Shown here one piece after another: positions 28,931 to 57,852 of a stretch of DNA of 64,000 nt (positions within the stretch are counted from its first letter, which is position 1; each line of letters begins with the position of its first letter). The notes under the pieces are model-generated. The model did no database searches. It was not told where the DNA came from and was given only the letters and a program-made list of their open reading frames with translations. Source of the DNA: Rhodospirillaceae bacterium (GTDB taxonomy: Bacteria; Pseudomonadota; Alphaproteobacteria; UBA828); NCBI GenBank assembly GCA_002717225.1, contig PBDG01000009.1, forward strand, positions 76,563 to 140,562, read 5' to 3'. The translations under genes and the position numbers were made by a program.

Positions 28931-28949
28931 GGTCCTCTTCTCCTTCTCT

Positions 28950-31004: not shown

Positions 31005-31274
31005 TTAAGTCGCCCCTCCCGAAAAACATCGTGAACACTGTAAAATTGATGGTATTTGCAATAGCTTCTCCCCACACTTCAACTCTTCAAAAGGTCTCTA
31101 GGTTAGCAAATTTTGCGGTAACTTAGTATCCGACACAGAGCATGTCCACGACAACACTCATTAATAATTTAATGTTTTTCCACGCTCGACAAGTGCGGTT
31201 ACATACGGCAAGAATTTACGGCTGGCCGACTGCGGCCACAAATTATTTTGATGTCAGAGCGAAAGAGGTGCCGC

Positions 31275-33386
31275 ATGGCGAGCTATCTTTGCGGAATCGA
31301 TATCGGTGGTACTTTTACCGATTGTGTTATCGTCGACGGAGCGGGTGCCGTCACCACTGCTAAGGCTCCGTCCACTCCGCATGATTTTGCCAGAGGTGTT
31401 CAAGACGCTCTGAAAGCCGCCAGCGGCAAATTGGATCTAGAATTAGACGAACTCTGTTCCGAAATCACCATGCTGAGCCATGGCACCACGGTTGGAACTA
31501 ACGCTATCATCCAGAAGCGCGGCGCCAAAGTTGGACTAATCACCACGCGCGGCCATAACGATGTAATCCACATCATGCGTGGCTCGCGCGGCCTCACCGG
31601 TAACGAGATTCGCCTGGTTGTGCATATCCCCGAAAGCCAGAAGCCAGACCCGATCATTCCCAAACGTCTGATCGAGGGTGTCTCAGAGCGAGTCGACTGC
31701 TTCGGCAAAGTCATCGTCAAGCTTAATGAAGAGGAGGCCGAGGCCGCGATCCGCCGCCTTCTGGAAAAAGACGTTGAAGCCATCGCTGTCTGCTTCCTTT
31801 GGTCATTCCTCGCCCCACAGCACGAGGCGCGGGTAAAGGAAATGATCGCCGATATCGCGCCCAATATGTTCGTCACCACCTCGCACGAGCTGGTCCCGAA
31901 ATGGGGCGAATATGAGCGTACCGCTGCAGTGGCGCTTAACGCTTATATTGGCCCACTCACCACCGGCTATATCGCCGGCGTAGCAAGCGACGTAGAGGGT
32001 CTCGGTTATCATCAACCGTTGCAAATCACGCAATGTGCTGGTGGCACCATTTCGGTCAACCGCGCAATGTCAGCGCCCTTACTAACCCTTGATTCCGGAC
32101 CGGTCGCCGGCGTCACTGGCTCGCAATATGCCGGCGGACTGATGGGCTATGACAATATCATTACCACTGACATGGGCGGAACCTCCTTTGATGTCGGCAT
32201 AATTCACGATGGCAAACCAGCCTTTTCCTACACTAGCCTAGTTCATCAATATGCCTATTATCTCTCCAAGGTAGATATTCAGACCATCGGCGCGGGCGGC
32301 GGCTCCAAGGCTTGGATCGATGAAACCTCAGGGATGCTACGCGTCGGCCCAGAAAGCGCTGGAGCGGCGCCCGGACCCGCCTGTTATGGTCGCGGCGGCG
32401 ATATTGCAACAGTAACCGACGCGGACCTACTGCTCGGCTATCTTGACGCGGAAAATTTTGCTGGTGGTTCCCTCACACTCGACCGTGCAGCAGCAGAAGC
32501 AGCGATCAGAAAGATTGCAGACCCTCTGGGGCTTAGCCAGCTTGAAGCCGCCGCTGGCATCGTCAAGATTGCTGAATTCCAAATGGCCGACCTCATTCGC
32601 AAGGTGACCATCCAGAAGGGATTTGATCCGCGAGATTTTGTGCTATTTGCTTTCGGCGGCGCTGGTCCAGTTCATGCCGGCGTGTTCGCCAAGGAGCTCG
32701 GTGTCTCAAAGGTTATCGTACCGCAGCGCGAGACCGCTTCGGTCTGGTGTGCCTTTGGTGCTGCGGCGGCAGACGTTCTACATGTTCATGAGCGGGTTAA
32801 CATGATGCGCTCACCCTTCGATGTCGTCGAATTGAACAACGTGCTCGGAGAATTGGAGAACCGCGCTAAAGCAGAATTGACAGCGGATGAAATCCTGCCT
32901 GAACGCCAGCACCTTCGCTTCGCCCTCGACATGCGCCACAAGGGGCAGATCAACGAAGTCGAGGTAGAAATTTCAGGGTCGTCCTTAGCAGAAGTCGATT
33001 TGCCTAAACTACGCGACGCCTTCGTCGGGCAATATGAACGCCAATATGGCCAGGGCGCCTCGTTGCCCGGAGCGCGCCTAGAAATCGTCACCTTCCGCTG
33101 CCGCGCCGCGGCAGATACAGCCAAACCACGCCTGACGCGAGCCGACAAAATGACCGCTACCATCGATGGTGCTGCGTTACGACCGGCGCGCTTAGTCTTT
33201 TGGACTGAATATAGCGAGACAATCGATACGCAAGTGTTCAACGGCGAGAAGCTCGCCCCTGGCAACGGTGTGTCCGGCCCGGCGATTGTCGAGACAGCGG
33301 ATACCACGGTTGTGCTTCATCCAGAACAAACTCTTGCAGTCGATGCGTTCGGAAATTTCGAACTCACGCTCGCAGCATCCAAATAG
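31275..33386 (+). CDS. Hydantoinase A family subunit (HyuA), second paralog
   Basis: GIDIGGTFTDCVIVDG and DMGGTSFDVG motifs. Start taken at ATG 31275, which has an AAAGAGG SD. Confidence 0.85.
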   Translation: MASYLCGIDIGGTFTDCVIVDGAGAVTTAKAPSTPHDFARGVQDALKAASGKLDLELDELCSEITMLSHGTTVGTNAIIQKRGAKVGLITTRGHNDVIHIMRGSRGLTGNEIRLVVHIPESQKPDPIIPKRLIEGVSERVDCFGKVIVKLNEEEAEAAIRRLLEKDVEAIAVCFLWSFLAPQHEARVKEMIADIAPNMFVTTSHELVPKWGEYERTAAVALNAYIGPLTTGYIAGVASDVEGLGYHQPLQITQCAGGTISVNRAMSAPLLTLDSGPVAGVTGSQYAGGLMGYDNIITTDMGGTSFDVGIIHDGKPAFSYTSLVHQYAYYLSKVDIQTIGAGGGSKAWIDETSGMLRVGPESAGAAPGPACYGRGGDIATVTDADLLLGYLDAENFAGGSLTLDRAAAEAAIRKIADPLGLSQLEAAAGIVKIAEFQMADLIRKVTIQKGFDPRDFVLFAFGGAGPVHAGVFAKELGVSKVIVPQRETASVWCAFGAAAADVLHVHERVNMMRSPFDVVELNNVLGELENRAKAELTADEILPERQHLRFALDMRHKGQINEVEVEISGSSLAEVDLPKLRDAFVGQYERQYGQGASLPGARLEIVTFRCRAAADTAKPRLTRADKMTATIDGAALRPARLVFWTEYSETIDTQVFNGEKLAPGNGVSGPAIVETADTTVVLHPEQTLAVDAFGNFELTLAASK

Positions 33387-33396
33387 GGATACAATT

Positions 33397-35688
33397 ATGC
33401 CCCGCATCAGCCAAATCACCGATACCACATTCGACGGTATCAACAATCCCTATGTGCCAAAAAAGGATCTTGACATTTCACCCAGTCTCAAACTGCACCG
33501 CGAGTGGGATGAAACCTTGGACCCGGTCACCTACGAGGTGATCCGCCACAATCTATGGAACATCAATGAAGAGCATGGCGCTACAATCCAGCGAATATCT
33601 GGTTCGCCAGTGGCTATGTTCGCTCTCGACCTTAATCCCTCGATTCTTACCGAGGATGCCGAATTCGTCTATTTCGGCCCCTATATGCAATACATGTCCG
33701 GCGTCACCGACACGCAGGTGAAATGGATTCTCGAATACCGCTCGGACAATCCGGGAATCAAGCCGGGAGATATGTTTCTCGCCAACGACCCTTGGGTCGG
33801 CGCAGCACATCAGATGGACGTAATGCTGATCTGCCCGGTCTTCCATGGTGACAAACTGTTTTGCTGGATCACCAATTGCCTCCATCAATACGATATCGGC
33901 GGCATCACCCCGGGCAGCTTCTGCCCGGCGGCAGAGAGCGCGTTCGACGAGGGCATCCTTATCCCGCCGGTGAAAATTGTCGAGAACGACGTAGTGCGCA
34001 AGGACATTGAAGCACTTTATCTCCGCTCGTCACGCAAGCCAGAGATGGTAGCGCTAGATTTCCGCGCTCAACTCGCTGGCAACATGACCGCTAAGACGCG
34101 CATCAAGGCACTGATTGATCGCTACGGTGCCAAGACCGTAAAAAGCGTGATGAAGAAGGTGATCGATAATTCCGAAGCTGCCTTCCTTTCAAAGCTAAAG
34201 AAAATCCCCGACGGGGTGTGGCGCGACCGCACATATGTTGAGGCCTGCCGCCCTGGCGACCGGCGTACCCACCGGGTGCAGATCGCGCTCACCAAGAAGG
34301 GGGACAAGCTGATCTTCGACAATGAGGGTACCGCGCCGCAAGACGGCGCCATGAACGCAACCTATTCCGGGTGGCGCGGTTCGGTGATGGTTGCAATCAA
34401 CGAGCTCTTGAGTTGGGATCAATATTTTGCGGTCGGTGGCGCTTTGCGCCATATCGAATTTGACCCAGTCCCTGGTACGCTTAACTGTGCTGATTTTCCT
34501 GCATCGGTCTCCACCGCACCGACGCAATCAATGGAAATCTCGCTCTATCCAGCCTATAACATCATCTCCAAGATGCTATATTCCGATGAAGAGCTGCGGC
34601 AAGACATCATGGGCATCGGTGGGACCAGTCAATGGCCGACCACCATCTTCCGTGGTATTGATCAATGGGGCGAACGATACGGCTATATTTTGATTGACCC
34701 GATAGGTGGATCTATTGGCGCGTTTGCACAAGGTGACGGCATCAACACTGGTGGCCAGGCAAGGACGCCGATCGGCCAGTTGCCCAATGTCGAACACAAT
34801 GAGCAACTCTTTCCCCTCCTATTCCTTTACCGCAAGGAGCTACCGGATTCAGGGGGCGCCGGGAAGTTCCGGGGCGGTCTCTCCGCGGAAAGCTGTTTCA
34901 TCCCACACAACACTGATTTCATCACCCAGGATACGCTTTCCTCCGGCAACGCTATCCCGACTTCAACCGGTATGATGGGCGGCTATCCGTCCACCACCAA
35001 CGCTTATACTTTCATCCGAGAGAGCGACATCTTTCAGCGCATGAAGGAGTCTAGGCTAATCGAAGACAGCTCCGAAGTAGCAGGCAACCCCCAACATCTC
35101 GAGCTACGCCAGGAAAATTTTGTGCAAAATTCAGCGGACGTTTATGCCGTGCGATGGTCTGGTGGCGGCGGCTTTGGCGATCCACTGCAACGCGACATCG
35201 AAAGGATCGTTCATGACCTGGAGCATCTCAATATTACGCCAAAAGCGGCGCGCGAGATTTTCGGCGCAGTGCTTGACGAAAATGAACAGGTAGATGTGGC
35301 GGCAACGGAAGAGAATCGTAACAAGATCCGCAAAGAACGCCTTGAGCGCCTCAAAAATGGCCAGGTGCCACGCGACAGCCATGCAGGAGAGACAGCTTTC
35401 CCTGCTGGAGATAATCTCGCGGTCTATGGCTCCGGCGATACCGCACGCTGGGGCTGCGCCCACTGCACCGCCGACCTTGGACCGATTGGTGAGAATTTCA
35501 AGGATGCATGTCTACGCGATGACCGCCCAGTTTCAGACTCCAACCCGCTGGTGGGCGACCCGGCTGTCTTTATTGATGATGCGGTCAATTTTCGCCTGTT
35601 TTATTGCCCATCCTGTGGTAATCAGATCGACAATGAAATAGCTGTGACCAGCGACGCTGTACTTCGCGACATTGAATTGACCGTGTAA
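33397..35688 (+). CDS. Hydantoinase B family subunit (HyuB), second paralog, with a C-terminal Cys4 (CxxC...CxxC) extension of about 150 aa
   Basis: HyuB blocks DPVTYEVIRHNLWNINEEHG and GGGGFGDPLQRD. The tail carries WGCAHC (Cys codons at 35454 and 35464) and YCPSCG (35605, 35614). Start taken at ATG 33397, after the hyuA stop. Confidence 0.8.
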   Translation: MPRISQITDTTFDGINNPYVPKKDLDISPSLKLHREWDETLDPVTYEVIRHNLWNINEEHGATIQRISGSPVAMFALDLNPSILTEDAEFVYFGPYMQYMSGVTDTQVKWILEYRSDNPGIKPGDMFLANDPWVGAAHQMDVMLICPVFHGDKLFCWITNCLHQYDIGGITPGSFCPAAESAFDEGILIPPVKIVENDVVRKDIEALYLRSSRKPEMVALDFRAQLAGNMTAKTRIKALIDRYGAKTVKSVMKKVIDNSEAAFLSKLKKIPDGVWRDRTYVEACRPGDRRTHRVQIALTKKGDKLIFDNEGTAPQDGAMNATYSGWRGSVMVAINELLSWDQYFAVGGALRHIEFDPVPGTLNCADFPASVSTAPTQSMEISLYPAYNIISKMLYSDEELRQDIMGIGGTSQWPTTIFRGIDQWGERYGYILIDPIGGSIGAFAQGDGINTGGQARTPIGQLPNVEHNEQLFPLLFLYRKELPDSGGAGKFRGGLSAESCFIPHNTDFITQDTLSSGNAIPTSTGMMGGYPSTTNAYTFIRESDIFQRMKESRLIEDSSEVAGNPQHLELRQENFVQNSADVYAVRWSGGGGFGDPLQRDIERIVHDLEHLNITPKAAREIFGAVLDENEQVDVAATEENRNKIRKERLERLKNGQVPRDSHAGETAFPAGDNLAVYGSGDTARWGCAHCTADLGPIGENFKDACLRDDRPVSDSNPLVGDPAVFIDDAVNFRLFYCPSCGNQIDNEIAVTSDAVLRDIELTV

Positions 35689-43545: not shown

Positions 43546-44250
43546 CTAGCCACCCATGCCGACGAACTCCCGTACCAAATCAGGGTCAGAAAGTTGATCG
43601 GGAGAGACTTCGTTAACCAGTTGACCGCGCTGGATTATGTGAACGCGCTGGCTAAGCGAGGCTATGAAATCAAGATTCTGCTCTACTAAAACGATGGTCA
43701 GATTCCGGCTCGTTCGGAGGCTGTGCAGTATTTCGATGATTTCTTCAACAATGGAGGGTTGAATACCTTCGGTTGGCTCATCGAGGAGCAGCAGACTGGG
43801 ACCACCGCAAAGACAGCGCGCGAGTGCAAGGATCTGCTGCTCACCGCCTGAGAGGACGCGGCCTGCACGATCCAGGAGCGGTTTTAGACGCGGGAACGTC
43901 TCCAGCACCTCTTCCAGAACTTTCTCTTCGTCTACCTTGTGCATCGCCATGGCGATCTTGAGATTGTCGACAACCGAAAGATTGGGAAAAATATCGCGCC
44001 CCTGCGGCACATAGCCCACACCGCTCAAGTTGCGTTTATAGGCAGGCATGCGAGTAATGTTTTGGCCATTCAATTCGATGGTACCATCGGTGGGGCGTAA
44101 AAGACCTATTAACGCCTTCAAAAGTGTCGTCTTGCCCATGCCATTATGACCAAGAATGCCGACGAACTCGCCCTCGGCAACATTGAGGTCAATGCCATGC
44201 AGGATTGGAATACGCCCGTAAGCGGTTTTTAGCCCGGAAACTGCGAGCAT
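43546..44250 (-). CDS. HAAT-family (branched-chain amino acid/amide-type) ABC transporter ATP-binding protein, LivF-like
   Basis: Walker A GHNGMGKTT, signature LSGGEQQILALARCL, and a size of 234 aa. Confidence 0.85.
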   Translation of the reverse strand: MLAVSGLKTAYGRIPILHGIDLNVAEGEFVGILGHNGMGKTTLLKALIGLLRPTDGTIELNGQNITRMPAYKRNLSGVGYVPQGRDIFPNLSVVDNLKIAMAMHKVDEEKVLEEVLETFPRLKPLLDRAGRVLSGGEQQILALARCLCGGPSLLLLDEPTEGIQPSIVEEIIEILHSLRTSRNLTIVLVEQNLDFIASLSQRVHIIQRGQLVNEVSPDQLSDPDLVREFVGMGG

Positions 44251-44252
44251 AG

Positions 44253-45017
44253 TCAGGCGACCTCCCGCTTGCCCAGGTAAACGTCGCGCACATCCTGGTT
44301 CTTGAGCACGTTGTCCATCGTATCCTCTACCAGGATGGCGCCCTGGTTGAACACGGTGACCCTGTTGGCAATCGCCTTGATGAATTGCATGTCATGCTCG
44401 ACGACAATGAGTGAAGCGGTGCGGTTGATCTCACGAATCATCTCAGTTGTCCGGTGAACTTCTTCGTGGGTCATGCCGGCTGTCGGTTCGTCCAACAAAA
44501 TTAACTCCGGATCGCCGGTTAGCACGATGGCGAGTTCGACGCCTTGGCGCTCGCCATGAGCGAGTTGACCGACGAGGCGGTTAGCCACTCCGGTGAGGCC
44601 GATACGCTCGAGAATCTCATCGACCACCCGGTTGGATTCGCGATTGCTGTGATAGCGCCGCGCCGATAGCCAGATATTCTCTCGCACATCGAGGCCATCG
44701 AACACACTCGGCACCTGGGTCTTAATGCCGATACCTCGGCGCGCGATCTGATGGGTATGCGAGCCAGTAATATCATCGCCGCGGTAAATTACATGCCCTG
44801 ACGTCGGCTTGTATTGATGGGTAAGACAGCGAAAGAAGGTTGTCTTACCGGCTCCGTTGGGACCAATCAGGCACCGCAGTTCACCTTCAGCCATGCTGAA
44901 ATCAACATTGTCCACCGCTACCACGCCGCCAAACCGCATGGTAAGGCCGCGCGTCTCCAAAATGGGTCGCGCTGCATCAGTCACCCGCGCGCCCCTCCCG
45001 AGCGCCATTTCTGGCAC
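44253..45017 (-). CDS. HAAT-family ABC transporter ATP-binding protein, LivG-like
   Basis: Walker A GPNGAGKTT, signature LAHGERQGVELA, and the C-terminal LivG-type extension. The exact start is uncertain: 45017 overlaps the permease gene. Confidence 0.8.
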   Translation of the reverse strand: MPEMALGRGARVTDAARPILETRGLTMRFGGVVAVDNVDFSMAEGELRCLIGPNGAGKTTFFRCLTHQYKPTSGHVIYRGDDITGSHTHQIARRGIGIKTQVPSVFDGLDVRENIWLSARRYHSNRESNRVVDEILERIGLTGVANRLVGQLAHGERQGVELAIVLTGDPELILLDEPTAGMTHEEVHRTTEMIREINRTASLIVVEHDMQFIKAIANRVTVFNQGAILVEDTMDNVLKNQDVRDVYLGKREVA

Positions 45018-46068
45018 TATCGCCCCCCTCGTCTGTTGGTCGCGTCCAGGGTAAAAAACGTAGCGCTAGCATTTGCGCCGTGGGTTGAAGACCCTGTGGT
45101 ACGGCAAGCACGAAGAGGAGGATGATGCCGCCGAATACGAGGTAGGTGTTCAACCAGCCCGCGAAATTCTGCGTGCCCAACCAATTGTAGAGCATGAGGA
45201 GAGCAAGCGAGCCCAACATTGGTCCGATTAACGTACCAACGCCGCCGATCAGCACCCACATGATGATCTGCGCGGCAAGCGCAAGAGCAAATTTATCGGG
45301 ATTGACAAAATTGTTGAAGGTCACCAGCAAGAAGCCGGCCAGCCCAGCGATGCCGCCGCCGATGGTAAAGGTGATCATCTTGTAGAAGCGAACGTCGTAG
45401 CCAAGCAACTCGGCGCGTGTTTCATTTTCCTTGATAGCGACGATCACCCTGCCGAAATGGGTGCGCAACAGAAATCGCAGACCAAAATAGACCAGAATAA
45501 GTAGTGCCATAGCCACATAAAATTTGTCGTCAGGCCACAAGAGAGAGTCAGGAAAGCCAGGCCAGTTGGGGTCGGGTATCGAGGAAATGCCGTTGAAGCC
45601 CATTAGGCGTGCTTTGCCAATCACCCATTCTTCCCCCGAGGTCGAACGGATGAAGGCATATAGAATGAGCGTGACTGCAAGTGTGACCACGGCGAGATAA
45701 ACATCGTTCAATCGGCCATAGAACATGAAATAGCCAAGCAGCATGGCAAACGCCGCCGGTATAAAGATTGCGAGCAATATGGGAACGGTGCTTTCTCCCA
45801 TATTGATCACTCCAATTGCGTAGACATAGCCACCAAGACCGAAAAAGGCTGACTGGCCGAAACAGAGAATCCCGCCGAAGCCCCAGATAAAGGCAAGCGA
45901 GAGCGCCAACATGGCCATGGCGATGAAGAGAATCACCTTCAACAGTGTGAAGAGATCGAAAATTGTCGGCCCAAGAAACAGGAGCGCCAACATTATTGCA
46001 CCAGTGACCATCAAGCCGCGGGTGTTCCAGCTGTTGAAGTCAAACGTCTTCAGCATCGAATTGAACAT
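44977..46068 (-). CDS. HAAT-family ABC transporter permease, LivM-like
   Basis: 363-aa polytopic membrane protein in the liv-type operon. Confidence 0.8.
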   Translation of the reverse strand: MFNSMLKTFDFNSWNTRGLMVTGAIMLALLFLGPTIFDLFTLLKVILFIAMAMLALSLAFIWGFGGILCFGQSAFFGLGGYVYAIGVINMGESTVPILLAIFIPAAFAMLLGYFMFYGRLNDVYLAVVTLAVTLILYAFIRSTSGEEWVIGKARLMGFNGISSIPDPNWPGFPDSLLWPDDKFYVAMALLILVYFGLRFLLRTHFGRVIVAIKENETRAELLGYDVRFYKMITFTIGGGIAGLAGFLLVTFNNFVNPDKFALALAAQIIMWVLIGGVGTLIGPMLGSLALLMLYNWLGTQNFAGWLNTYLVFGGIILLFVLAVPQGLQPTAQMLALRFLPWTRPTDEGGDSARNGAREGRAGD

Positions 46069-46934
46069 CAGAGCGACCTGCGGAAAATTTTTCCAGTAAT
46101 GCCCTGCGGCAAGATGCGCAGCAACAATACCGCGACGATGAGGAGCGCGACACCGCCGATAATCGGTGTAGTCTCATAGGTAACGAGCTGGCGCACCGTA
46201 CCGAACACACCGGAAGCAACGATAGTACCAGTAATAGCTCCAGTGCCGGCAGTGATCACCGTGATAAATGCCTGGGCAACATAAGTGAAGCCAACGGTCG
46301 GGATAATCTGCGAGATCGGCGCCAAAAGACCACCGGCCAAACCAGTAAGCGCAGCGCCAATGCCAAAAGTCACCATGTAGACCTTGGGCGGGCTGATTCC
46401 GAGAGCCGCCGCCTGATCGGCATTCTGCATAGTGCCACGTGCAATCAGCCCGAGCTTGGTACGGGTGAAGGCGAGATAAATTCCCGCGAAAAGAATTACA
46501 GTCAGGCCGATCAGCACCAGCCGGTATACAGAAAGCTGATATTGGCCGATGCTAAAATTGCCCATCGGCGCCGAAACACCGGTGATGTAATTGCCAAAAA
46601 TGGAGGTAACTATACCGATCAAGAGAAGGCTCAAACCCCAGGTGGCAATCAGCGTGTCAACCAAGCGGCCGTAAAAGAAGCGGATCAAAAAGCGTTCCGC
46701 AAGAATGCCGATAACGCCAACAACAAGAGGCGACAGGATCAGCATAGAGACCCATATATTCACGCCAGCATTTGTGGCAACCACCGTGGTATAGCCACCA
46801 AGCATCATGAATTCGCCATGCGCGAAATTGATTACGCGCATCATGCCGAAAATGATCGCCAGCCCAGCGCATGTAAGCGCCAGGCTGGAAATCCCGTTCA
46901 GCACTTCGATTATGAGAAGTGCGGCCGTATCCAC
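46068..46934 (-). CDS. HAAT-family ABC transporter permease, LivH-like
   Basis: 288-aa polytopic membrane protein with the N-terminal motif LNGISSLALTCAGLAIIFG.... Confidence 0.8.
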   Translation of the reverse strand: MDTAALLIIEVLNGISSLALTCAGLAIIFGMMRVINFAHGEFMMLGGYTTVVATNAGVNIWVSMLILSPLVVGVIGILAERFLIRFFYGRLVDTLIATWGLSLLLIGIVTSIFGNYITGVSAPMGNFSIGQYQLSVYRLVLIGLTVILFAGIYLAFTRTKLGLIARGTMQNADQAAALGISPPKVYMVTFGIGAALTGLAGGLLAPISQIIPTVGFTYVAQAFITVITAGTGAITGTIVASGVFGTVRQLVTYETTPIIGGVALLIVAVLLLRILPQGITGKIFRRSL

Positions 46935-46980
46935 GGCTGAACCTTTAGGGCTTCCTGTTTGAGGTTATGCTGTTCCGCTT

Positions 46981-48219
46981 TTATAGAATGGGCTCAAGAT
47001 GCGCATCCATATCGGGCGTCTTGGTCAGATCACAGCGATCAACCACGTCGCTAGGATAAAGCTGACTGTAACTGTCAAAAATCTTCCAGCTTTGATTCTG
47101 GCACTCAGCTACATGCATATCCTGGATGACATGATTTGTTACCGGGTCAACGACCATGTGGCCCGCTGGGCCATCCCAAGCGATATCGCCGCTGCGAAGC
47201 GCATCCATCACTGCTTGACGCTCGTGCGTACCTGCCTTCTTGACACCCTCAGCCCACAGCATGGTTCCAAGATAGCCGCCGATACCAACCGCGTTGAGGT
47301 ACGGCGCATCGGAGCCAAAACGCTTATGATAGCGCGCTACGAAATCCTTATTGGCTGGCAGGTCGATTTCCTGAAAGTAAGGCTGAGCGCTGACGATGCC
47401 GTTACTCTCTTCTGGCTGAAGCTGCATATGTTCATTGCCAACGCCGAATGTGCAAGAAACGATCGGAATTTTGTTGAGCATTCCGGCCGCTGCCCACTGG
47501 CGGTAGAAACCCATGTGTGCTGCGCCCACAAGGCAGGTTGCGAGCCAATCAGGCTTGGCCTCCTGAATCTTGGCAATCGCCGGACCGAATTCGGTAACAT
47601 CGAGCGGGAAGTGATCACGCTGCAGTACTTCGCCGCCAAGGTCTCCAGAGAATTTCTGCAGCCATTTGCCAATGATTTGCGGCGCGTTATAGTCAGCCCC
47701 GATGTAATAGGCCTTCTTACCGCGATTATTGAAACCGAACTCCGCCGTAGGCTTCACCCACTGCACGGCGCCCACGCCCGAAACGAAATTGTTGATATCG
47801 CAAACGCCGCCTTCATAAATGACACTGTACCAGAGGAGGGTTTTGTAGCGCCGGAGTATTGGGCGAATGACTTCGCGCGACGCACTGGTGATAGCACCGT
47901 GTACAAGATCAACCCGCTCTTTGAGAGCCGCTTCCTGAGCATATTGTGCGTAAAGCTCCATGCTCGACTGCGGGTCATATTTGATCAATCTAATTTTCTT
48001 GCCATTTAGGCCGCCGGCAGCGTTGATTTCCTCAACCGCAAGCTCGCAGGTCATAGTCATCGGTGTACCGTAAATATCGAGACCACCTGATTGGTCAAAC
48101 AGCGAGGCAATTACGATCTCGTCATCCGCCTTACTCTTATAAGGCAAGATGCTGGCGGCAAAAGCGGTGCCAAGACCAGCACCCGCGCCCTTTAAAACAG
48201 TTCTGCGTGAAAGTTTCAT
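46981..48219 (-). CDS. HAAT-family periplasmic substrate-binding protein (LivK / amide-urea-binding-like) with a Tat-type signal
   Basis: N-terminal MKLSRRTVLKGAGAGLGTAFAA is a twin-arginine-like signal. The size and fold match type-I PBPs of the Leu/Ile/Val/urea/amide family. Confidence 0.8.
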   Translation of the reverse strand: MKLSRRTVLKGAGAGLGTAFAASILPYKSKADDEIVIASLFDQSGGLDIYGTPMTMTCELAVEEINAAGGLNGKKIRLIKYDPQSSMELYAQYAQEAALKERVDLVHGAITSASREVIRPILRRYKTLLWYSVIYEGGVCDINNFVSGVGAVQWVKPTAEFGFNNRGKKAYYIGADYNAPQIIGKWLQKFSGDLGGEVLQRDHFPLDVTEFGPAIAKIQEAKPDWLATCLVGAAHMGFYRQWAAAGMLNKIPIVSCTFGVGNEHMQLQPEESNGIVSAQPYFQEIDLPANKDFVARYHKRFGSDAPYLNAVGIGGYLGTMLWAEGVKKAGTHERQAVMDALRSGDIAWDGPAGHMVVDPVTNHVIQDMHVAECQNQSWKIFDSYSQLYPSDVVDRCDLTKTPDMDAHLEPIL

Positions 48220-50661: not shown

Positions 50662-50938
50662 AGGTCGGGGAGAGTGGTTTCGACTGGTTCAGGCGGGAGC
50701 ATAGACACGATAAACGAAGAGATGCAGAAAATTTTGACTGATTAGCCACGAATTGAACTACCGATCTATCTCCACCAAGCAAAGTAAGGCCAACTAATTC
50801 CCGTATTTATCTCTGTCGCAGTTTGCTTGGGAAAATGCACAATCTTTAGCAAAGACACAAAGTTTTAGCGGTTTTCTGGGACAAATCCACAATTCATTTA
50901 AGGAAACTTTATTCCTTAAATTCAATTGCACGGAACGT

Positions 50939-50966
50939 GGCGAGGGGCTAGTCTCGCGCCCTCGCC
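50939..50966 (+). promoter_or_regulatory. Stem-loop GGCGAGGG-N12-CCCTCGCC in the 5' leader, 23 nt upstream of the amidotransferase start codon
   Basis: Read directly: ggcgaggg gctagtctcgcg ccctcgcc is an 8-bp perfect stem. It is followed by the GAAGGGG SD and the ATG at 50989, and lies inside a 330-bp AT-rich leader. Confidence 0.3.
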
Positions 50967-50988
50967 AAATCGGCGAAGGGGAATATCT

Positions 50989-51909
50989 ATGTGCGGAATC
51001 GCAGGCATCATGTTCAAAAATGGTCGAACTGACCATGAAACGGGCGTGGCGCTAATCGATATGCTCGATGGCTGCCAACACAGGGGTCCGGATTCCACGG
51101 GCTTTGCGCTCTATGGCGAAGAACACACGAGCGAGCTCAAGTTACGCTTTCTTATTGGAGACGGCACCGCGGCCGATGACTCCGTCGAACTGATCAAGAG
51201 TGCGCTGGAGGATCATGATGCGGAAATCGTCGACGATATGCGCATCGGCAACAATTATCAGGCGCTGGTGCGCTTTAACGGCGATCTACGCAGCTTTGCC
51301 TATGCGATGGAACACGCGGCGCCCGATGCTAAAGTCATCTCCATCGGACAGAGCCTAGATATCGTCAAAGATGTGGGCGGCGCCCATGATGTAGATGACC
51401 GCTTCGACGTACATAACTTTAAAGGCAGCCATGGCCTCGGCCATGTGCGCCTCGCCACCGAATCGGATGTCCGCCCGGAATCAGCGCACCCTTTCTGGGC
51501 TACTGGTTTTTCCGACGTCGCCATCGTCCATAACGGCCAGATCACCAATTATTGGAAGATGCGCCGCCGGCTTGAGCAACGCGGATTTGAATTCCGCACC
51601 GACAATGATAGTGAATTAGTTGCTGTCTATCTTGCCGACAAAATGTCCCAGGGAGTGCCTCTGCGCGAAGCCCTAAAAGCTTCGATTGAAGATTTGGACG
51701 GCACTTTTTCCTTCCTCGTCTCGACCAAGGACGAAATCGGCTATGCCAAGGATAATCTCGCCGCGAAACCGATGGTCATGTACGAAACCGACGACCTCAT
51801 CGCCATCGCTTCGGAAGAAGTGTCCCTTAATCGCCTGTTTCCGGGCCACGCACTGAACACCAAGGAGCCCCCGCCGGGGAGCTATGATACATGGTCCAAA
51901 TCGACCTAG
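50989..51909 (+). CDS. Class-II (Ntn) glutamine amidotransferase, GlxB/MgsA-like subunit of a split glutamate-synthase-like enzyme
   Basis: The mature N-terminus after Met is CGIAGI, the class-II GATase nucleophile Cys. The size is about 306 aa. Start set at ATG 50989. Confidence 0.8.
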   Translation: MCGIAGIMFKNGRTDHETGVALIDMLDGCQHRGPDSTGFALYGEEHTSELKLRFLIGDGTAADDSVELIKSALEDHDAEIVDDMRIGNNYQALVRFNGDLRSFAYAMEHAAPDAKVISIGQSLDIVKDVGGAHDVDDRFDVHNFKGSHGLGHVRLATESDVRPESAHPFWATGFSDVAIVHNGQITNYWKMRRRLEQRGFEFRTDNDSELVAVYLADKMSQGVPLREALKASIEDLDGTFSFLVSTKDEIGYAKDNLAAKPMVMYETDDLIAIASEEVSLNRLFPGHALNTKEPPPGSYDTWSKST

Positions 51910-53843
51910 CGGAAATTCCAGTCCGCCAGGCCAACGAACTTATCCGCAAATATGGGGCCGACGGCGAGGATATTGATATAATTAACCCCGACGCGCGACA
52001 TCACGTCGGCGTAGGGTTGACCGACCCAGTGACTGTGCGCGTGCACGGGTCCGCAGGTTATTTCTGCGCTGGCTTGACCGATGCGGCCCACTTCGAGATT
52101 GAAAGCAACGTCGGCTGGGGCCTTGGCGACAATATGTATACAGGCTCTGTTATCGTTGGCGGAAATGCCAGCGCAATCGCCGGCGTGGCGATACGCGGCG
52201 CCGAAATTGTCATCAAAGGCAATATGGGATCGCGCGCCGGACAAGTAATGAAAGCGGGCACACTCTTGTGCTGTGGCAATGCAAATTTTATGGCCGGCTA
52301 TCTCATGTATGGCGGGCGCATCATCATCCTGGGCGATTCCGGCGAACGCGTCGGTGAAGATATGGCCGCCGGTGAGATTTATGTCGGTGGAAAGGTTCAG
52401 TCGCTTGGCTCCGATGCCAAAATGGGCGATACGGAAAGCAGCAAAATTGACGAGCTACGCGCCTTTCTCGACCGTTACAAGATTACCTTTAATGGCGATT
52501 TCCAGAAAATTGTCAACGAAGGCAAAAAGCTGCATTACAAAACCTCAGAACGGCCGATGCGCAGCCTTCCCTTTGTCGGATTCTCGGGAAAATCGGATTA
52601 CTGGAACCCGAAAATTCAGGAAGATATTCATATAAAATCACAGATTGGCCGCTATCGCGTACGTGGTTATGGCGGTGCGCGGGAACTGCCACACCTGGCA
52701 GATATCGGATTCGCGCGGAATATCTCCGGGTTAAATGAGATTTCCAACCCGGTGTCCAAGGTCGAGATGCGCACGCTGATCGGCGGCAAACACGGGGCGC
52801 AACCGCTCGACCTTTCAATGCCGGTGATGATCGCGCCAATGAGCTATGGCGCGTTGAGCCGTTCCACCAAACAAGCCATCGGTATCGCCTCATCGCTCGC
52901 AGGAATCGCGGAAAATACCGGTGAAGGTGGTATGAGCGACGCCCAGCGTGGTGCCGCGGAGCAATTGGTTTTCCAAATGCTTGGTGGACGGCTTGGTTGG
53001 AACATCCATGATATGAAACGCGCCAATGGGTTGGAGATCTATATTAGCCAGGGCGCCAAGCCCGGCTTCGGCGGTCAGCTCATGGCGAAAAAGGTGACCA
53101 AGGAACTAGCCGAAATTCGAGGTATCCCCCAAGGCATCGATCTGCGCTCACCATCGCGGCATCCGGATATTCTGGGCGGCGACGATCTCCTCATCAAGGT
53201 CGAGGAAATGCGCGAAGCAACAGGATATCGTTTGCCGGTCAGCGTCAAGCTAGGCGCCGGACGGGTGCGCGACGACATCAAGATCGCTTACAAGGATGGC
53301 TTCGATTTTGTCGAGCTCGACGGCATGCAGGGCTCAACCGGTGCCGGTGGCGCAGAAGTCATGGAATATGTTGGCATTCCCACTATCTCAGCGATCATGG
53401 ACGCGCTTGATGGTCTGGCGGAGATCGACGCCGACGGCAAAATTCAAATCATTCTCATGGGTGGTCTGCGCGACGGCGTGGACGCAGTCAAATCGCTTTG
53501 TCTCGGCGCCGATGCGGTGGCCTTTGGCAACGCCACGATCATCGCCGGCGGTTGCATTTCCTGCATGCAGTGCCATGTTGGTCAGTGTGTGACCGGCATC
53601 GCAACCCAGGACCCCGAGCATGAGAAGCGCTACCGCCCGGAAATCGAAGCGCATAATATCCACCGCTTTCTCGAAGGAGTGCGCTGGCAGATCGCAGCGC
53701 TGACCCACGCACTCGGCTATGGAGATGTCAAATCTCTCAACCGGGACGACCTCGTCGCCCTGACCCCAGAGGCGGCGGAGATCACGCGCCTTCCCTACCG
53801 GCCAGAGCTTCGCGAACAACAGCATCTCAGCAAGGCAGTCTAA
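51891..53843 (+). CDS. Fusion protein: GXGXG-repeat domain (N-terminal, GlxC/GltB C-terminal-domain-like) + glutamate-synthase FMN/Fe-S central domain (GlxD/GltB domain-2-like)
   Basis: N-terminal 230 aa has G-rich beta-helix repeats (VIVGGNASAIAG..., VIKGNMGSRAGQV..., LCCGNANFMAGY..., IILGDSGERVGED..., IYVGGKV). The C-terminal 420 aa has NTGEGG, QGAKPGFGGQL, DGMQGSTGAGG, and the 3Fe-4S motif C-x5-C-x4-C followed by VTGIATQDP. Confidence 0.8.
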   Translation: MVQIDLAEIPVRQANELIRKYGADGEDIDIINPDARHHVGVGLTDPVTVRVHGSAGYFCAGLTDAAHFEIESNVGWGLGDNMYTGSVIVGGNASAIAGVAIRGAEIVIKGNMGSRAGQVMKAGTLLCCGNANFMAGYLMYGGRIIILGDSGERVGEDMAAGEIYVGGKVQSLGSDAKMGDTESSKIDELRAFLDRYKITFNGDFQKIVNEGKKLHYKTSERPMRSLPFVGFSGKSDYWNPKIQEDIHIKSQIGRYRVRGYGGARELPHLADIGFARNISGLNEISNPVSKVEMRTLIGGKHGAQPLDLSMPVMIAPMSYGALSRSTKQAIGIASSLAGIAENTGEGGMSDAQRGAAEQLVFQMLGGRLGWNIHDMKRANGLEIYISQGAKPGFGGQLMAKKVTKELAEIRGIPQGIDLRSPSRHPDILGGDDLLIKVEEMREATGYRLPVSVKLGAGRVRDDIKIAYKDGFDFVELDGMQGSTGAGGAEVMEYVGIPTISAIMDALDGLAEIDADGKIQIILMGGLRDGVDAVKSLCLGADAVAFGNATIIAGGCISCMQCHVGQCVTGIATQDPEHEKRYRPEIEAHNIHRFLEGVRWQIAALTHALGYGDVKSLNRDDLVALTPEAAEITRLPYRPELREQQHLSKAV

Positions 53844-53844
53844 G

Positions 53845-56376
53845 TTGGCAGCGAGTAAAGACAGCGGAGTGGAAGCTCCCATGCTTCTTCCGGCTGAAAT
53901 GCCGGACGATACGGACGACCTGCATTTTGTCCCTGCACCCTGCCAGGTGGCCTGCCCTGTCGGAACCGACGCGCCTTCCTATATAGCCTATATATGGGAA
54001 GGCAAATATGAGGAAGCGTTCGAGGCGATTACCGCTACCAACCCATTCAGCTCGATTTGCGGACGGGTGTGCGATGCCCCATGCGAACCTGCCTGCAGAC
54101 GGGTACAATCAGATGGGCCCGTGCAAATCCGCAATCTCAAGCGTTACGTCATGGATGAAATTGGCGACCGGCTCGATCCGCCTCCCGTGCCAGTCACCCA
54201 GAAAGAGACGGTGGCCATCGTCGGGTCCGGACCGGCCGGCTTAGTCGCCGCGCATGATTTGTCGATCGCCGGCTATGAAGTCCACGTCTACGAGATGACC
54301 GACCGGCTAGGTGGAATGATGATATGGGGCATCCCCGCTTTCCGCTTGCCACCCGGCGTGATTGACGAAGACATTCAGCGCCTAACCAAGCGCTGTCCTG
54401 GCCTCAAGATTCACCTCAACACTGCGCTGGGCGATGGTGTGACACTGGAGGAACTAAAGGAGCGCCATGACGCCGTGGTGCTCGCCATTGGCTCCTGGTG
54501 GGGCAAAAAGATGGGAATTCCGGGAGACACCGACACGCGGGTCATCGACGGCGTGCAGTTCCTGCGTGACGTCAATGCTGGCGCACGGCCGGAAATGCCG
54601 GAAACCGTGGTCGTGGTCGGCGGCGGGGACGTCGCCATGGACGCCTGCCGAGTCGCCAAGAGACTTCCTGGCTGCAAGCACGTCAAAGTGATCTATCGTC
54701 GGGGGCCGGACGAGATTCCGGCGCGCGCCATTGAGCTTGAGGGGGCCGTCAAAGAGGATATCGAATTCATCTACAACACCCAACAAACCGCCGTTTCTCC
54801 AAAGGGCAACCAGCTCGCCATCACCTGCCTTAAAACCGAGTTGGGTGAACCAGACGAAGAAGGCCGGCGCGTTCCAGTCGAGATAGTGGGCAGCGAGCAC
54901 GAGATTGAATGCGGTATGATCATTGCCTCGATCGGCCAGCAGGGCAAATGTGCTCATCTCGACGAGAAAGGCATGATGCTGAGTGATCGCGTGCGGACAG
55001 AATGGGGCAGTATGTTGACCGACGACCCAAAAGTCTTCGCCGCCGGCGACGGCGCTTTCGGCGGATCAACTATCGTCATGGCCATGCATCACGGTCAACG
55101 CGTCGCTTATTACGTGAAGGCGTTTCTCGAAGGCCATAGGGACCCTATGCCCTACCGCCAACCCTTCCGCACCCGACGGGTGCCTCTGGCGCAGGATCTC
55201 GAGTGGGAGAAGCTGCCGTTACAAGAACCCGCCTTTCACGGGCTAGGCGCCAATCCGATCGAGTTCCCCGAGATCGAAGATACTTATGGCAGCGACACGG
55301 CACGCAATGAGGCAGCGCGCTGCTATCGCTGCGACGCAGAGACTGGTACTGCTGACTATTCCGTGCGCCACCGCGAGGACATTTTCACCATGGCGCGCAC
55401 CAACCCACTCGACGAGCGTTCGCATGCCACAATGCTTGCGCGCCGCTTGCAGCCGCGCGATAACCCTTTTCCAGACCACCGAAAGGCCACGCTGGACGAT
55501 CTCATCTTTCTGCCAGCCAATCTGACCCGACTGGTGATTGACCCCTACCGCGAGGCATGCCGAATTGACACGGAACTCGGCGCCGGACGCTTCGTTATGG
55601 AGCAACCCTTTATCGCTACCGGATTCGACGACGCACCAGGTCAAGTACGTGAAGCCATTGCCGAGGGCCTAAAGGATTTTGACACTCCCTATCTCGGAGT
55701 ACGCGCTCTTTCAACGGATGTTCCCTGGCTGCAACTGGTCGTGCCGGGGCAGATCGCACCGAGCACTGACGCGGCGGCGCAGATTCATAACCTAGGTCAC
55801 GAATTTCGACCGATTGAGACGACGCGTCTGACAGAAAACCAACTTCTTGGCTTGTCGGTTTCCTCTCCCGACATACTGGAAGAAACGATCTCTTATGCCC
55901 TGGCGAAGAAATTTGATATACTCCTCCTCGACGGCAGCGGCGGCCTCGGCACGCCCTGGGCCGAGCTCTCCGGTGAACCCAATCTAACCATCCTGCGCGA
56001 CGCCGTCGCTATTCTCAGACGTATTGGGCGAGAGGAAGAGATCGACCTGATTTTTTTCGGTGGTGTTCGCTCGGGCACTGATACGGCTAAGCTGGTAGCG
56101 CTCGGTAGCATGGCGGTGGTGCTTGGCGTTACCCTGGGACTGGCCGCTGGAGCTGAAATTAGAGACCGGCACGACATGCAATTCTCCGCCGATCGTGACA
56201 AAAATGATCGCGCCGAAGCGGTGGCCCATATTCTTAATGCTAGCGCCCAAGAAGCGTCGATGATGGCGCGGTGCACCGGCAAGACCAATCTGCAAAACGT
56301 CGAGCCGGAGGATTTGCGCGCAATTACCATCGCCACCGCCAAAGCCACCGGTATCCCGCTCGCCGGCACGCTTTGA
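53845..56376 (+). CDS. Fusion protein: GltD-like NAD(P)H:flavin/Fe-S oxidoreductase (N-terminal, about 470 aa) + degenerate second glutamate-synthase-like TIM-barrel domain (C-terminal, about 370 aa)
   Basis: N-terminal Cys-rich block ...CQVACPVGTDAP...ICGRVCDAPCEPACRR..., then IVGSGPAGLVAAHDL (FAD) and VVGGGDVAMDACRVA (NADPH). The C-terminal half has LDDLIFLPANLTR, ILLLDGSGGLGTPW and IFFGGVRSGTDTAKLVALGSMAVVLG, but lacks the NTGEGG and QGAKPG motifs. Confidence 0.8.
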   Translation: MAASKDSGVEAPMLLPAEMPDDTDDLHFVPAPCQVACPVGTDAPSYIAYIWEGKYEEAFEAITATNPFSSICGRVCDAPCEPACRRVQSDGPVQIRNLKRYVMDEIGDRLDPPPVPVTQKETVAIVGSGPAGLVAAHDLSIAGYEVHVYEMTDRLGGMMIWGIPAFRLPPGVIDEDIQRLTKRCPGLKIHLNTALGDGVTLEELKERHDAVVLAIGSWWGKKMGIPGDTDTRVIDGVQFLRDVNAGARPEMPETVVVVGGGDVAMDACRVAKRLPGCKHVKVIYRRGPDEIPARAIELEGAVKEDIEFIYNTQQTAVSPKGNQLAITCLKTELGEPDEEGRRVPVEIVGSEHEIECGMIIASIGQQGKCAHLDEKGMMLSDRVRTEWGSMLTDDPKVFAAGDGAFGGSTIVMAMHHGQRVAYYVKAFLEGHRDPMPYRQPFRTRRVPLAQDLEWEKLPLQEPAFHGLGANPIEFPEIEDTYGSDTARNEAARCYRCDAETGTADYSVRHREDIFTMARTNPLDERSHATMLARRLQPRDNPFPDHRKATLDDLIFLPANLTRLVIDPYREACRIDTELGAGRFVMEQPFIATGFDDAPGQVREAIAEGLKDFDTPYLGVRALSTDVPWLQLVVPGQIAPSTDAAAQIHNLGHEFRPIETTRLTENQLLGLSVSSPDILEETISYALAKKFDILLLDGSGGLGTPWAELSGEPNLTILRDAVAILRRIGREEEIDLIFFGGVRSGTDTAKLVALGSMAVVLGVTLGLAAGAEIRDRHDMQFSADRDKNDRAEAVAHILNASAQEASMMARCTGKTNLQNVEPEDLRAITIATAKATGIPLAGTL

Positions 56377-56565: not shown

Positions 56566-57852
56566 ATGGATATATCGCTCAATTACGGTAAAACCCAACT
56601 TGTCGTAACGCTACCGGATGACCTTGAAGTCCGTGTCATCCGCAAGCCTGACATGCCGCTCCTGGATGATCCGGTGGCAACACTCGAAGCCTCGTTTGCC
56701 AAGCCAGACGGCGGCCCAAATCTCGCCTATCTTGCCAGAAAAGCACAAACAGCCTGTATTCTCATTTGCGACATCACACGCCCAGTGCCAAACAGTGTAT
56801 TGCTGCCACCGCTCCTCCGTGCGCTTCTCGCTGCCGGGCTAGGCAGGGAAAACATCGTTATTCTCGTCGCCACCGGTCTGCACCGGCCAAATGAAGACGA
56901 GGAGCTGGCCGAGTTGGTCGGTGATCCCTGGGTGATGGAGAATTTTGCCGTCGTCAATCATTTTGCCCGCGACGATGCCTCACATGTTTCACTCGGACGC
57001 ACAAGGAGTGGAACAAAAGTCATGCTAGATAAACGCTTCGTAGAAGCGGACCTCCGCATCGCCACTGGTCTAGTAGAGCCCCATTTCATGGCTGGCTGGT
57101 CCGGTGGGCGCAAGGTGATCGCGCCGGGAGTCGCCCATGCCGAGACCATTACCACCTTCCACAGCGCAAGGTTTATGGAGCATCCTAATTGCGCCAATTG
57201 CGTGCTCGACGGCAATCCGCTGCATGACGAACAACTTGAAATTATCGCCATGTTAGGCTGCGTCAGTGCGATCAATGTAGTGATCAATGAGGATCGTCGT
57301 ATTTCAATGATTAATTTCGGTGAGGTAGTAAAAAGCCATATGGCAGCGGTAGATCATGTCCGCACCTATGCCGAAGTCCCAATGCCGGAGCGCTTCTCCA
57401 CCGTGATTACCAGCGCCGCGGGCTACCCCCTCGACAAGACCTACTATCAAACAGTGAAAGGCATGGTCGGTCCGCTAGATATCCTGAAGCCTGGTGGAAC
57501 TCTCGTCATTGCCTCGGCCTGTTCCGAAGGCATGGGCTCGGCGGAATATATCACCTCCCAACGTAATCTGATGAATATGGGCGCTGATCGCTTCCTCAAA
57601 CATATCGAGTCTAAAAGTCACGCAGCGGTCGATGAATGGCAGACCGAGATGCTTTTGAAACCGCTTCGCTCGGGCCAAGTGGTTCTCTACACTGAAGGCC
57701 TAACGGAAGAGGAACTCTCCCTTACCGCCGTGAAACCCACCACCTCAATTGACCAAGCAATAGTTGCAGCAGTCGCTGACGCTAACGACAAGCGCATAGC
57801 GGTTATTCCGGAAGGGCCCTATGTGGTTCCACGATACCGGCCCGGGATTTGA
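56566..57852 (+). CDS. LarA-family (nickel-pincer-nucleotide-dependent lactate racemase-like, DUF2088) protein
   Basis: The N-terminal domain matches LarA blocks: ...ILICDITRPVPNSVLLPPLL..., ...VILVATGLHRP..., ...VNHFARDD..., ...ATGLVEPHFMAGWSGGRKVIAPGVA.... The last block carries the cofactor-tethering Lys and the catalytic His region. Length 428 aa. Confidence 0.75.
   Translation: MDISLNYGKTQLVVTLPDDLEVRVIRKPDMPLLDDPVATLEASFAKPDGGPNLAYLARKAQTACILICDITRPVPNSVLLPPLLRALLAAGLGRENIVILVATGLHRPNEDEELAELVGDPWVMENFAVVNHFARDDASHVSLGRTRSGTKVMLDKRFVEADLRIATGLVEPHFMAGWSGGRKVIAPGVAHAETITTFHSARFMEHPNCANCVLDGNPLHDEQLEIIAMLGCVSAINVVINEDRRISMINFGEVVKSHMAAVDHVRTYAEVPMPERFSTVITSAAGYPLDKTYYQTVKGMVGPLDILKPGGTLVIASACSEGMGSAEYITSQRNLMNMGADRFLKHIESKSHAAVDEWQTEMLLKPLRSGQVVLYTEGLTEEELSLTAVKPTTSIDQAIVAAVADANDKRIAVIPEGPYVVPRYRPGI

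Follow-up and report, generated by a model that had tools for sequence, protein, structure and literature searches.

Glutamate synthase is a textbook multi-domain iron–sulfur (Fe-S) flavoenzyme. The central domain of its GltB subunit is a truncated barrel that is seen as a decayed duplicate of the domain that binds flavin mononucleotide (FMN), and that lines the ammonia tunnel (PMC5011417, PMC8097209); a 2021 review still calls its origin unsettled (PMC8097209). Here, we analyze a stretch of 64,000 nucleotides from a Rhodospirillaceae bacterium (GenBank assembly GCA_002717225.1, contig PBDG01000009.1, positions 76,563 to 140,562 of the forward strand; hereafter the window), in which an 843-aa protein joins a GltD-like reductase to a C-terminal barrel domain. 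We use the name barrel 2 for the unnamed family represented by the C-terminal ~345 residues of this protein. Judged by sequence comparison and modeling, barrel 2 appears to be a widespread family of non-catalytic barrels derived from Pfam family PF01645, which may bear on how the GltB central domain originated.

The 843-aa protein is encoded by the last of three genes that are tightly packed on the plus strand (Table 1). The first specifies a glutamine amidotransferase (GATase) and overlaps by 19 nt the second, which specifies a 650-aa synthase subunit; the stop codon of the second and the start of the third are 1 nt apart. Together, they encode each functional part of an NAD(P)H-dependent enzyme of the glutamate synthase type, namely an N-terminal nucleophile (Ntn) glutaminase, a GXGXG domain, an FMN/2-oxoglutarate barrel with an Fe-S loop, and a GltD-like module with flavin adenine dinucleotide (FAD) and two [4Fe-4S] clusters. 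The 650-aa protein carries ENTGEGG, SQGAKPG, SPSRHPD, and VKL motifs, which are invariant in its orthologues. Equally invariant are the four cysteines of its Fe-S loop, spaced as C-x2-C-x2-C-x4-C (aa 555–566, window positions 53553–53588). Since classical GltB has three, spaced as C-x5-C-x4-C, for its 3Fe-4S cluster, the type of cluster in the 650-aa protein may differ from that of classical GltB.

Table 1. Coding features of the operon, the parts of the 843-aa protein, and the next gene downstream (window positions).
Feature	Position	Strand	Evidence
Class-II (Ntn, PurF/GlmS-type) GATase subunit	50926–51909	+	Pfam GATase_6/GATase_7, E ~1e-20
Catalytic synthase subunit, 650 aa: GXGXG β-helix (aa 35–185) and intact PF01645 FMN barrel (aa 302–610)	51891–53843	+	Pfam PF01645, E = 8e-89; GXGXG, E = 1e-13
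843-aa protein	53845–56376	+	Pfam Fer4_20 (aa 31–105), Pyr_redox_2 (aa 122–417), PF01645 (aa 680–764), FMN_dh (aa 730–769)
GltD-like reductase core: Fer4_20 Fe-S region (aa 31–105) and FAD/NAD(P)H module (aa 122–430)	53935–55134	+	Pfam; alignment with E. coli GltD
Apparently permuted N-terminal GltD segment (aa 461–496), ...IEFPEIEDTY...EAARCYRC	55225–55332	+	Alignment with E. coli GltD and Fer4_20
N-terminal helical extension of the barrel-2 module (aa 498–547), ETGxxDYSVxHREDIFxMART...	55336–55485	+	AlphaFold2 helices 483–500, 507–518, 524–535
Entry block LDDLIFLPANLTRLVIDPYREAC (aa 548–575), including the universal C572	55486–55569	+	Most strongly conserved element of the barrel-2 family
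Reduced (β/α)8 barrel (aa 576–785)	55570–56199	+	AlphaFold2, Foldseek, hhalign, residue audit
C-terminal helices with the second signature motif EASMMARCTGKTNLQNVEPEDLRAIT (aa 786–843), plus stop codon	56200–56376	+	Family-wide conservation
LarA-like nickel-pincer 2-hydroxyacid racemase homologue	56566–57852	+	Pfam Lar_N and LarA_C

The homology of barrel 2 with the glutamate synthase FMN barrel was shown by several comparisons. In the complete 843-aa protein, hmmscan matched PF01645 to aa 680–764 with E = 3.6e-5 and 23.5 bits (gathering score 20.4), covering only positions 218–307 of the hidden Markov model (HMM), and the domain searched alone gave E = 6.4e-6. NCBIfam held no model for the C-terminal part of the protein. 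BLASTP aligned barrel 2 with the barrel of the 650-aa protein at 27% identity over 177 aa (E = 3e-10), and with hhalign a 35-sequence barrel-2 profile matched the orthologues of the 650-aa barrel with a probability of 97.7% (E = 1.6e-12). With divergent relatives added on both sides, the comparison with catalytic FMN barrels reached a probability of 100% (E = 5.1e-59) over 323 columns, so that the match now took in the domain from end to end, with both the entry block and the C-terminal helices. Residues ~548–843 are a homologue of the PF01645 FMN barrel over their full length.

These matches bear out an initial annotation, made from the DNA letters and their translations, which had recognized the tail of the protein as a glutamate synthase barrel. 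The extent that it claimed, aa 470–843, needs correction: the barrel is real, but the first ~28 residues belong to the reductase. The displaced CxxC segment described below ends at aa 496, so the barrel-2 module begins near aa 498; the barrel proper begins near aa 548–576. Likewise, the strings that were quoted as kept from the FMN domain, LDDLIFLPANLTRLVID (aa 550–566), ILLLDGSGGLGTPW (aa 692–705), and IFFGGVRSGTDTAKLVALGSMAVVLG (aa 735–761), are all present in the translation of 53845–56376, and the entry block is indeed kept, but the distal GG-x-GT is not a feature that conservation has kept. Where the family has the Thr of its GGTGA motif, barrel 2 shows a gap, and the loop varies among orthologues and free-standing relatives.

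What barrel 2 has lost was assessed by scoring its consensus at the 99 positions conserved to 85% or more among catalytic barrels, of which it keeps 31, substitutes 34, and deletes 34. The β2–β5 loops, which carry NTGEGG, GRxG, QGAKPGxGG, SPxxHxD, and VKL, keep 5 of 43 conserved positions and the Fe-S loop none of 11; from α5 to β8, 18 of 26 are kept. The motifs that contact substrate and FMN (MSxGALS, NTGEGG, QxxxGRxG, QGAKPGxGG, SPxxHxD, and VKL) are deleted or substituted, not shifted. The β5 lysine of VKL is replaced by Ser or Val (Ser671 in the window protein), and a hairpin free of cysteine replaces the Fe-S loop, with no Cys as a possible Fe-S ligand anywhere within aa 762–800. The β2–β5 loops of the catalytic face are also the least conserved part of the protein, with indels and a mean top-residue frequency of 0.56.

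Structure prediction, which the initial annotation had suggested as a check, gave a confident barrel with AlphaFold2 for both the full-length protein and the domain alone (predicted local distance difference test score, pLDDT, 90–97). Eight strands lie at residues 589, 616, 628, 645, 667, 692, 734, and 757, and helices follow only β1, β5, β6, β7, and β8; α2–α4 and the catalytic loops are missing. The entry block has pLDDT <50 in both models, and aa 809–819 also fall below 50. Foldseek searches with the domain model returned FMN-dependent α-hydroxyacid oxidases (PF01070) and IDI-2 (E ~1e-8, template modeling score 0.42–0.49), with no GltS chain within the top 50 matches of the domain-only model; those with the full-length model were dominated by the reductase half (top matches NfnABC, NfnB, GltD, and DPD). 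Although the α-hydroxyacid oxidases are the top structural neighbors, their catalytic His/Arg/Tyr and the Lys at flavin N1 are missing in barrel 2, and in the HMMER alignment, the flavocytochrome b2 residues K349, H373, and R376 are paired with Val, Gly/Thr, and a gap, respectively. Barrel 2 is probably a non-catalytic, pseudo-enzyme copy of the synthase barrel, and we infer the absence of chemistry from its residues. Both the loss of NTGEGG and QGAKPG in the tail, next to a neighbor that has them intact, and the non-catalytic character of the domain had been proposed at the outset; they stand, with 68 of the 99 conserved positions lost, including all substrate and catalytic loops and the Fe-S ligands, although selection has maintained the domain.

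Further conserved sequence relates the reductase half to GltD in an unusual order. E. coli GltD residues 55–471 align to aa 33–429 of the 843-aa protein at 33% identity (E = 4e-60), and the core matches Pyr_redox_2 with E = 4e-28 and has its Fe-S cysteines at 33, 37, 72, 76, 80, and 84. GltD residues 15–50, with the first CxxC, align to aa 461–496 (E = 0.009). Fer4_20 is split in the same way, HMM positions 30–107 matching the N-terminus (E = 6e-23) and positions 4–32 matching aa 473–501 (E = 0.017); the N-terminus itself (53845–53940) is without the first CxxC of Fer4_20. The alignments point to a circular permutation of the GltD-like module, by which the first CxxC segment now lies behind the FAD/NADPH module. 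C493 and C496 of this segment, presumed ligands of [4Fe-4S]-I, are invariant, and the cysteines are absent in a fusion protein without GltD (P0246). Database gene calls put the start of the 843-aa protein at Met13 (P0121, 831 aa).

Relatives of barrel 2 occur in other settings. An exhaustive search over 1.84 billion representative proteins yielded 132 clusters at E<1e-30, among which we distinguish four architectures, with GltD plus barrel 2 dominant. A GltD-less architecture, found on 5 contigs, consists of GXGXG, catalytic barrel, and barrel 2 (P0246, 1031 aa), and an all-in-one form (P0243, 1486 aa), on which we do not rely, is a singleton on one short contig. Free-standing barrel-2 proteins of ~360–440 aa, which came to light only in this search, are 28–35% identical to the window domain and keep LVFLPANLTRLVIDPYRExC and CGK(T/S)..HN(L/M)EPEDLR nearly unchanged. 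One of them (P0292) matches proteins named 'FMN-binding glutamate synthase family' or 'methylamine-glutamate N-methyltransferase subunit C' at 31–34% identity over 84–90% of its length. The helical extension at aa 498–547 is conserved in the barrel-2 family, with homologous N-termini in P0292 and P0246. Short homologues of 390–465 aa (P0007 and P0043, on megabase contigs) were considered as the natural free-standing form and discarded, being truncated by transposons or frameshifts. Truncated or frameshifted GltD–barrel-2 copies were seen at L001 8001–9395 and L002 6277–9176, one of them flanked by several transposases, near N,N-dimethylformamidase genes.

The gene order around these relatives ties barrel 2 to the synthase, the module being found always beside GATase, GXGXG, and catalytic-barrel genes. 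In 80 metagenome loci (L013–L092), a GATase gene lies upstream of the catalytic-barrel gene in 60 of 60 with enough flank and a GltD core downstream of it in 55 of 55, with barrel 2 contiguous in 54 of 55. Two clusters with a free-standing barrel-2 gene (L093 and L094, gene at 8001–9090) have the order MttB, GATase, GXGXG/FMN barrel, barrel 2, GS-like, and a third (L095, gene at 8001–9314) has GATase, GXGXG, FMN barrel, barrel 2, Amt, GS-like, and DAO/SoxD/SoxA-like genes. In a fourth (L096), the fusion of GXGXG, FMN barrel, and barrel 2 (8001–11096) follows SoxBDAG-like, regulator, and GATase genes and precedes a GS-like gene. None of the four clusters has a GltD-like gene, and by their gene content they look like N-methylglutamate-pathway clusters of the type mgsABC-gmaS-mgdABCD (PMC6237917). 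Because free-standing and catalytic-barrel-fused versions occur in such GltD-less clusters, the barrel-2 module is not specific to the reductase.

The family is large, mostly marine, and maintained by selection. More than 2700 homologues were found at E<1e-50, and only three of the 120 listed matches have a length outside 816–869 aa; databases name them only 'FAD-dependent oxidoreductase'. In a metagenome scan, 400 of 532 candidate stretches encoded relatives, and the synteny of the three genes extends to Alphaproteobacteria (Rhizobiaceae-like and others), Arenicellales (Gammaproteobacteria), and Gaiellales. Mean identity to the window falls from 78% in the catalytic subunit to 74% in the GltD core and 58% in barrel 2, so that barrel 2 evolves faster than its neighbors. 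Relative to the closest orthologue (L003, synonymous divergence dS ~0.41), the ratio of nonsynonymous to synonymous divergence (dN/dS) is 0.13 for β1–β5, 0.07 for β5–β8, and 0.03 for the GltD core; the entry block shows no amino acid change at all (dN = 0, dS 0.14). With dN/dS of 0.07–0.13, the barrel-2 domain is under purifying selection and is not a relic.

Conservation across the wider family is concentrated at the two ends of the domain. Of 43 conserved positions, 31 fall in the entry block (15) and the C-terminal motif (16) and ~12 in the barrel core, and the 15 in the entry block are shared by fused and free-standing members at ~30% overall identity. Since this conservation is concentrated where the AlphaFold2 monomer is of low confidence, the terminal motifs are candidate interface elements. 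C572 (in YREAC) and C810 (in ARCTGK), both where pLDDT is <50, are conserved in barrel 2 and in ordinary catalytic barrels of the MgsC-like group. We rejected the idea that four invariant cysteines (493, 496, 572, and 810) form a new Fe-S site in barrel 2, because C493 and C496 are the permuted CxxC of GltD and are gone where GltD is absent, because C810 moves by one position or is missing in relatives, and because C572 and the C-terminal Cys also occur in the ordinary catalytic MgsC-like barrels.

MgsC-like barrels are the closest sequence family to barrel 2. The two have in common the entry block FDDLVF..SR...YRExC and the tail ARxCGK..HxLEPEDL, and barrel-2 neighborhoods have the matching GATase, GXGXG, GS-like (gmaS-like), and SoxBDAG-like (mgd-like) genes, but MgsC has NTGEGG-type, QGAKPG, SPxxHxD, and VKL motifs and the Cys loop, none of which is present in barrel 2. 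The published MgsABC operons consist of three genes without a second barrel (PMC6237917). The window operon contains the same set of GATase, GXGXG, and FMN barrel, with GXGXG and barrel fused, but instead of gmaS-like or mgdABCD-like genes it is accompanied by LarA, MFS, and DAO genes. The comparison of these systems reveals a division of features: ordinary three-component MgsC-like catalytic barrels bear the catalytic loops and both terminal motifs, while in every four-component system examined (the window and L093–L095), the catalytic barrel has neither the YRExC entry block nor the ARxCGK..EPEDL tail, exactly the two motifs that its barrel-2 partner keeps. Such complementary retention reads as the signature of a duplication followed by subfunctionalization into catalytic and non-catalytic partner subunits.

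We therefore favor, as somewhat better than an even proposition, a model in which barrel 2 would be the subfunctionalized, non-catalytic fourth component of split amidotransferases of the glutamate synthase/N-methylglutamate synthase type (GATase, GXGXG, catalytic barrel, and barrel 2), analogous to the central domain of GltB. Barrel 2 would have arisen by duplication of an MgsC-like, FMN-binding barrel of the glutamate synthase family. The catalytic copy would have retained the FMN/2-oxoglutarate loops and the Fe-S loop but dropped both terminal motifs, the YRExC entry block as well as the ARxCGK..EPEDL tail; barrel 2 would have dropped catalysis and retained these two motifs on a stripped scaffold. 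The two barrels would pair physically, with the terminal motifs helping to build the GATase–synthase interface, either as scaffold or as tunnel. In the lineage of the window, barrel 2 is fused behind a permuted GltD-like NAD(P)H reductase, which probably ties the electron-input subunit to the synthase complex; the tethering is probably a secondary consequence of the fusion and not the primary function of the module. Barrel 2 is cast as the counterpart of the central domain, which packs against the FMN barrel, because only that part of the classical α subunit otherwise lacks an equivalent in the operon.

The comparison with the GltB central domain (Pfam PF04898; residues 423–780 in 1EA0 and 490–735 in 1OFD) reveals likenesses in organization. 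Both would be decayed α/β barrels without cofactor, the state of barrel 2 being predicted, that stand beside a catalytic FMN barrel, a GATase, and a GXGXG domain. Both have decayed in the same β1–α5 stretch, which shrinks from ~150 aa in FMN barrels to ~82 aa in barrel 2 and ~35–50 aa in the central domain, and both have a short motif (ANLTRLVIDPYRE versus AQVTNPPIDPLRE). Thr507 and Asn508 in the motif of the central domain presumably line the ammonia tunnel of the GltS structures (numbering checked on 1EA0). There are differences as well: barrel 2 keeps eight strands and is clearly PF01645-like, and it follows GltD, follows the FMN barrel, or is free-standing, whereas the central domain is placed between the GATase and FMN domains of a single polypeptide. 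The resemblance may reflect independent, parallel decay, that is, analogy.

Several observations weigh against the four-component model. PF04898 had no match at E<=10 in either the 843-aa protein or the domain alone, and hhalign against the central domain, represented by E. coli alone or by a four-species alignment, gave non-significant P values of 0.007–0.058 over the IDPxRE motif only. The positive control, FMN barrel against central domain, was equally weak (P = 0.021), and direct homology to the central domain was dropped as evidence either way, since the profile test has little power. The model does not account for the two conserved cysteines (C572 and C810/811), and the pairing and the tunnel role are what we infer. 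The characterized three-gene MgsABC systems work without a second barrel, so barrel 2 is not universally required (PMC6237917). Finally, the near-invariant GG-x-R-S-G-T-D, W628, and Q630 of the fused subfamily also fit a retained FMN or other phosphorylated ligand.

This last point leads to the alternative that barrel 2 has kept the ability to bind FMN or a different phosphorylated ligand and serves as a second site, redox or regulatory, for instance as an extra flavin fed by [4Fe-4S] or as an allosteric sensor. A phosphate-type motif GG-x-R-x-G-x-D is kept at aa 739–746; G739, R742, G744, and D746 do not vary within the fused subfamily, and G740, W628, and Q630 hardly vary. The FMN_dh match spans this motif, the 'WLQL' strand lines up with WYQLY, by which flavocytochrome b2 binds its flavin, and the Foldseek neighbors are all FMN enzymes. 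However, free-standing members do not share R742, G740, and Q630 as conserved residues (P0305 reads GCIQCGGD), and the β5 Lys and the β1 MSxGALS loop are gone. Barrel 2 has no Fe-S ligands in its vicinity, is not needed to complete the canonical electron chain, and also occurs in systems without a reductase. We consider ligand binding unlikely, if still the alternative to be taken most seriously.

The initial annotation had pictured the domain as a docking or electron-transfer scaffold between the reductase and the true synthase barrel, which in its strongest form would make barrel 2 chiefly an adaptor that holds GltD against the Fe-S loop of the synthase barrel. The GltD fusion is the dominant architecture, the CxxC of the GltD Fe-S domain directly precedes the barrel-2 module, and in classical GltS the Fe-S region forms the α/β interface (PMC8097209). 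On the other hand, the signature motifs are the same in GltD-less clusters, both in free-standing barrel-2 proteins and in those joined to the catalytic barrel, so the conserved function predates the reductase fusion and is independent of it. We regard a chief role in docking as improbable. The scaffold idea holds insofar as gene order and natural fusion tie barrel 2 to the synthase barrel, but reductase docking is not its sole role, and the electron-transfer part found no support: barrel 2 has no Fe-S ligands, the chain from FAD via two [4Fe-4S] clusters and the Fe-S loop to FMN is complete without it, and the Arg for the FMN phosphate is not family-wide.

The joining of the two halves has parallels in DPD and in eukaryotic NADH-GOGAT, in which a GltD-like Fe-S/FAD/NAD(P)H module is also covalently linked to a barrel-containing partner, the barrel being an FMN-type TIM barrel by Foldseek; the modular logic of such GltD-like fusions has been described (PMC8097209). 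The barrel of DPD is a catalytic one of the DHODH type and is followed by a 2x[4Fe-4S] domain, whereas that of the 843-aa protein is stripped, derived from PF01645, and not followed by a ferredoxin domain. In NADH-GOGAT, GltD is fused to a complete α subunit, whereas here the catalytic barrel resides on a separate protein, and the 843-aa protein differs from both in its permuted CxxC segment from the GltD N-terminus. That barrel 2 is instead catalytically active on a new substrate (perhaps some 2-hydroxy or 2-oxo acid, tied to the LarA and DAO-family genes), making the 843-aa protein a self-contained reductase like DPD, is very improbable, for its DPD-like architecture (Foldseek aligns DPD over both halves), its α-hydroxyacid oxidase neighbors, the LarA, MFS, and DAO genes downstream in the window, and the purifying selection on the domain are outweighed by catalytic-face loops that are its least conserved part, the absence of the FMN_dh His/Arg/Tyr/Lys set and of a DPD-type C-terminal ferredoxin domain, family-wide conservation outside the barrel core, and a LarA gene in only 11 of 47 loci, alternating with a GS-like gene.

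In this family, a stripped barrel is an obligatory partner of a catalytic barrel, whether free-standing, fused to the catalytic barrel, or fused to a reductase, and if the four-component model holds, the family would offer a natural, dissectable model for a pseudo-enzyme partner born of duplication and complementary loss. The model also flags an unrecognized fourth component in clusters resembling the N-methylglutamate pathway, for whose synthase the reductant has yet to be identified (PMC6237917). Our literature searches found no description of a four-component or GltD-fused system, nor of a fourth, non-catalytic barrel gene or fusion after the mgsC-like gene in such clusters. The C-terminal domain merits a family model of its own, which would end its annotation as a plain oxidoreductase or 'glutamate synthase'. 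A bolder extension, to which we give rather little credence, is that four-component enzymes represent the ancestral modular state of the classical α subunit, with barrel 2 as the surviving free-standing relative of the precursor of the GltB central domain and with the YRExC/IDPxRE block building the ammonia or amine tunnel between the glutaminase and synthase sites. If true, it would settle whether the central domain arose by duplication or independently, and would identify an unrecognized fourth subunit of N-methylglutamate-synthase-type enzymes together with an NAD(P)H-linked version.

Some features of the surroundings remain to be described. The listed open reading frame of the GATase begins at a TTG codon, 21 codons ahead of MCGI (50926–50988), and its catalytic Cys falls within aa 22–25 of that frame. 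Since the first residue of an Ntn amidotransferase has to be Cys, translation probably begins at the ATG at 50989. LarA, MFS, and DAO genes lie downstream of the operon in the window. All NCBIfam matches of the LarA-like gene fall under their cut-offs, and a literature search on LarA found no link to glutamate synthase. The gene that follows fused barrel 2 is GS-like in 18 loci and LarA-like in 12, never both, the window having the LarA variant; the LarA-like gene is a variable downstream neighbor outside the core enzyme, and the LarA and DAO neighbors were set aside as a clue to 2-hydroxyacid activity of barrel 2. Elsewhere in the window, positions 26915–35688 hold two hydantoinase/oxoprolinase A/B gene pairs, in which one B subunit has a tail resembling acetone carboxylase γ, and an operon for an ATP-binding cassette transporter of the branched-chain/amide type (~43546–48219) lies between these pairs and the glutamate-synthase-like operon.

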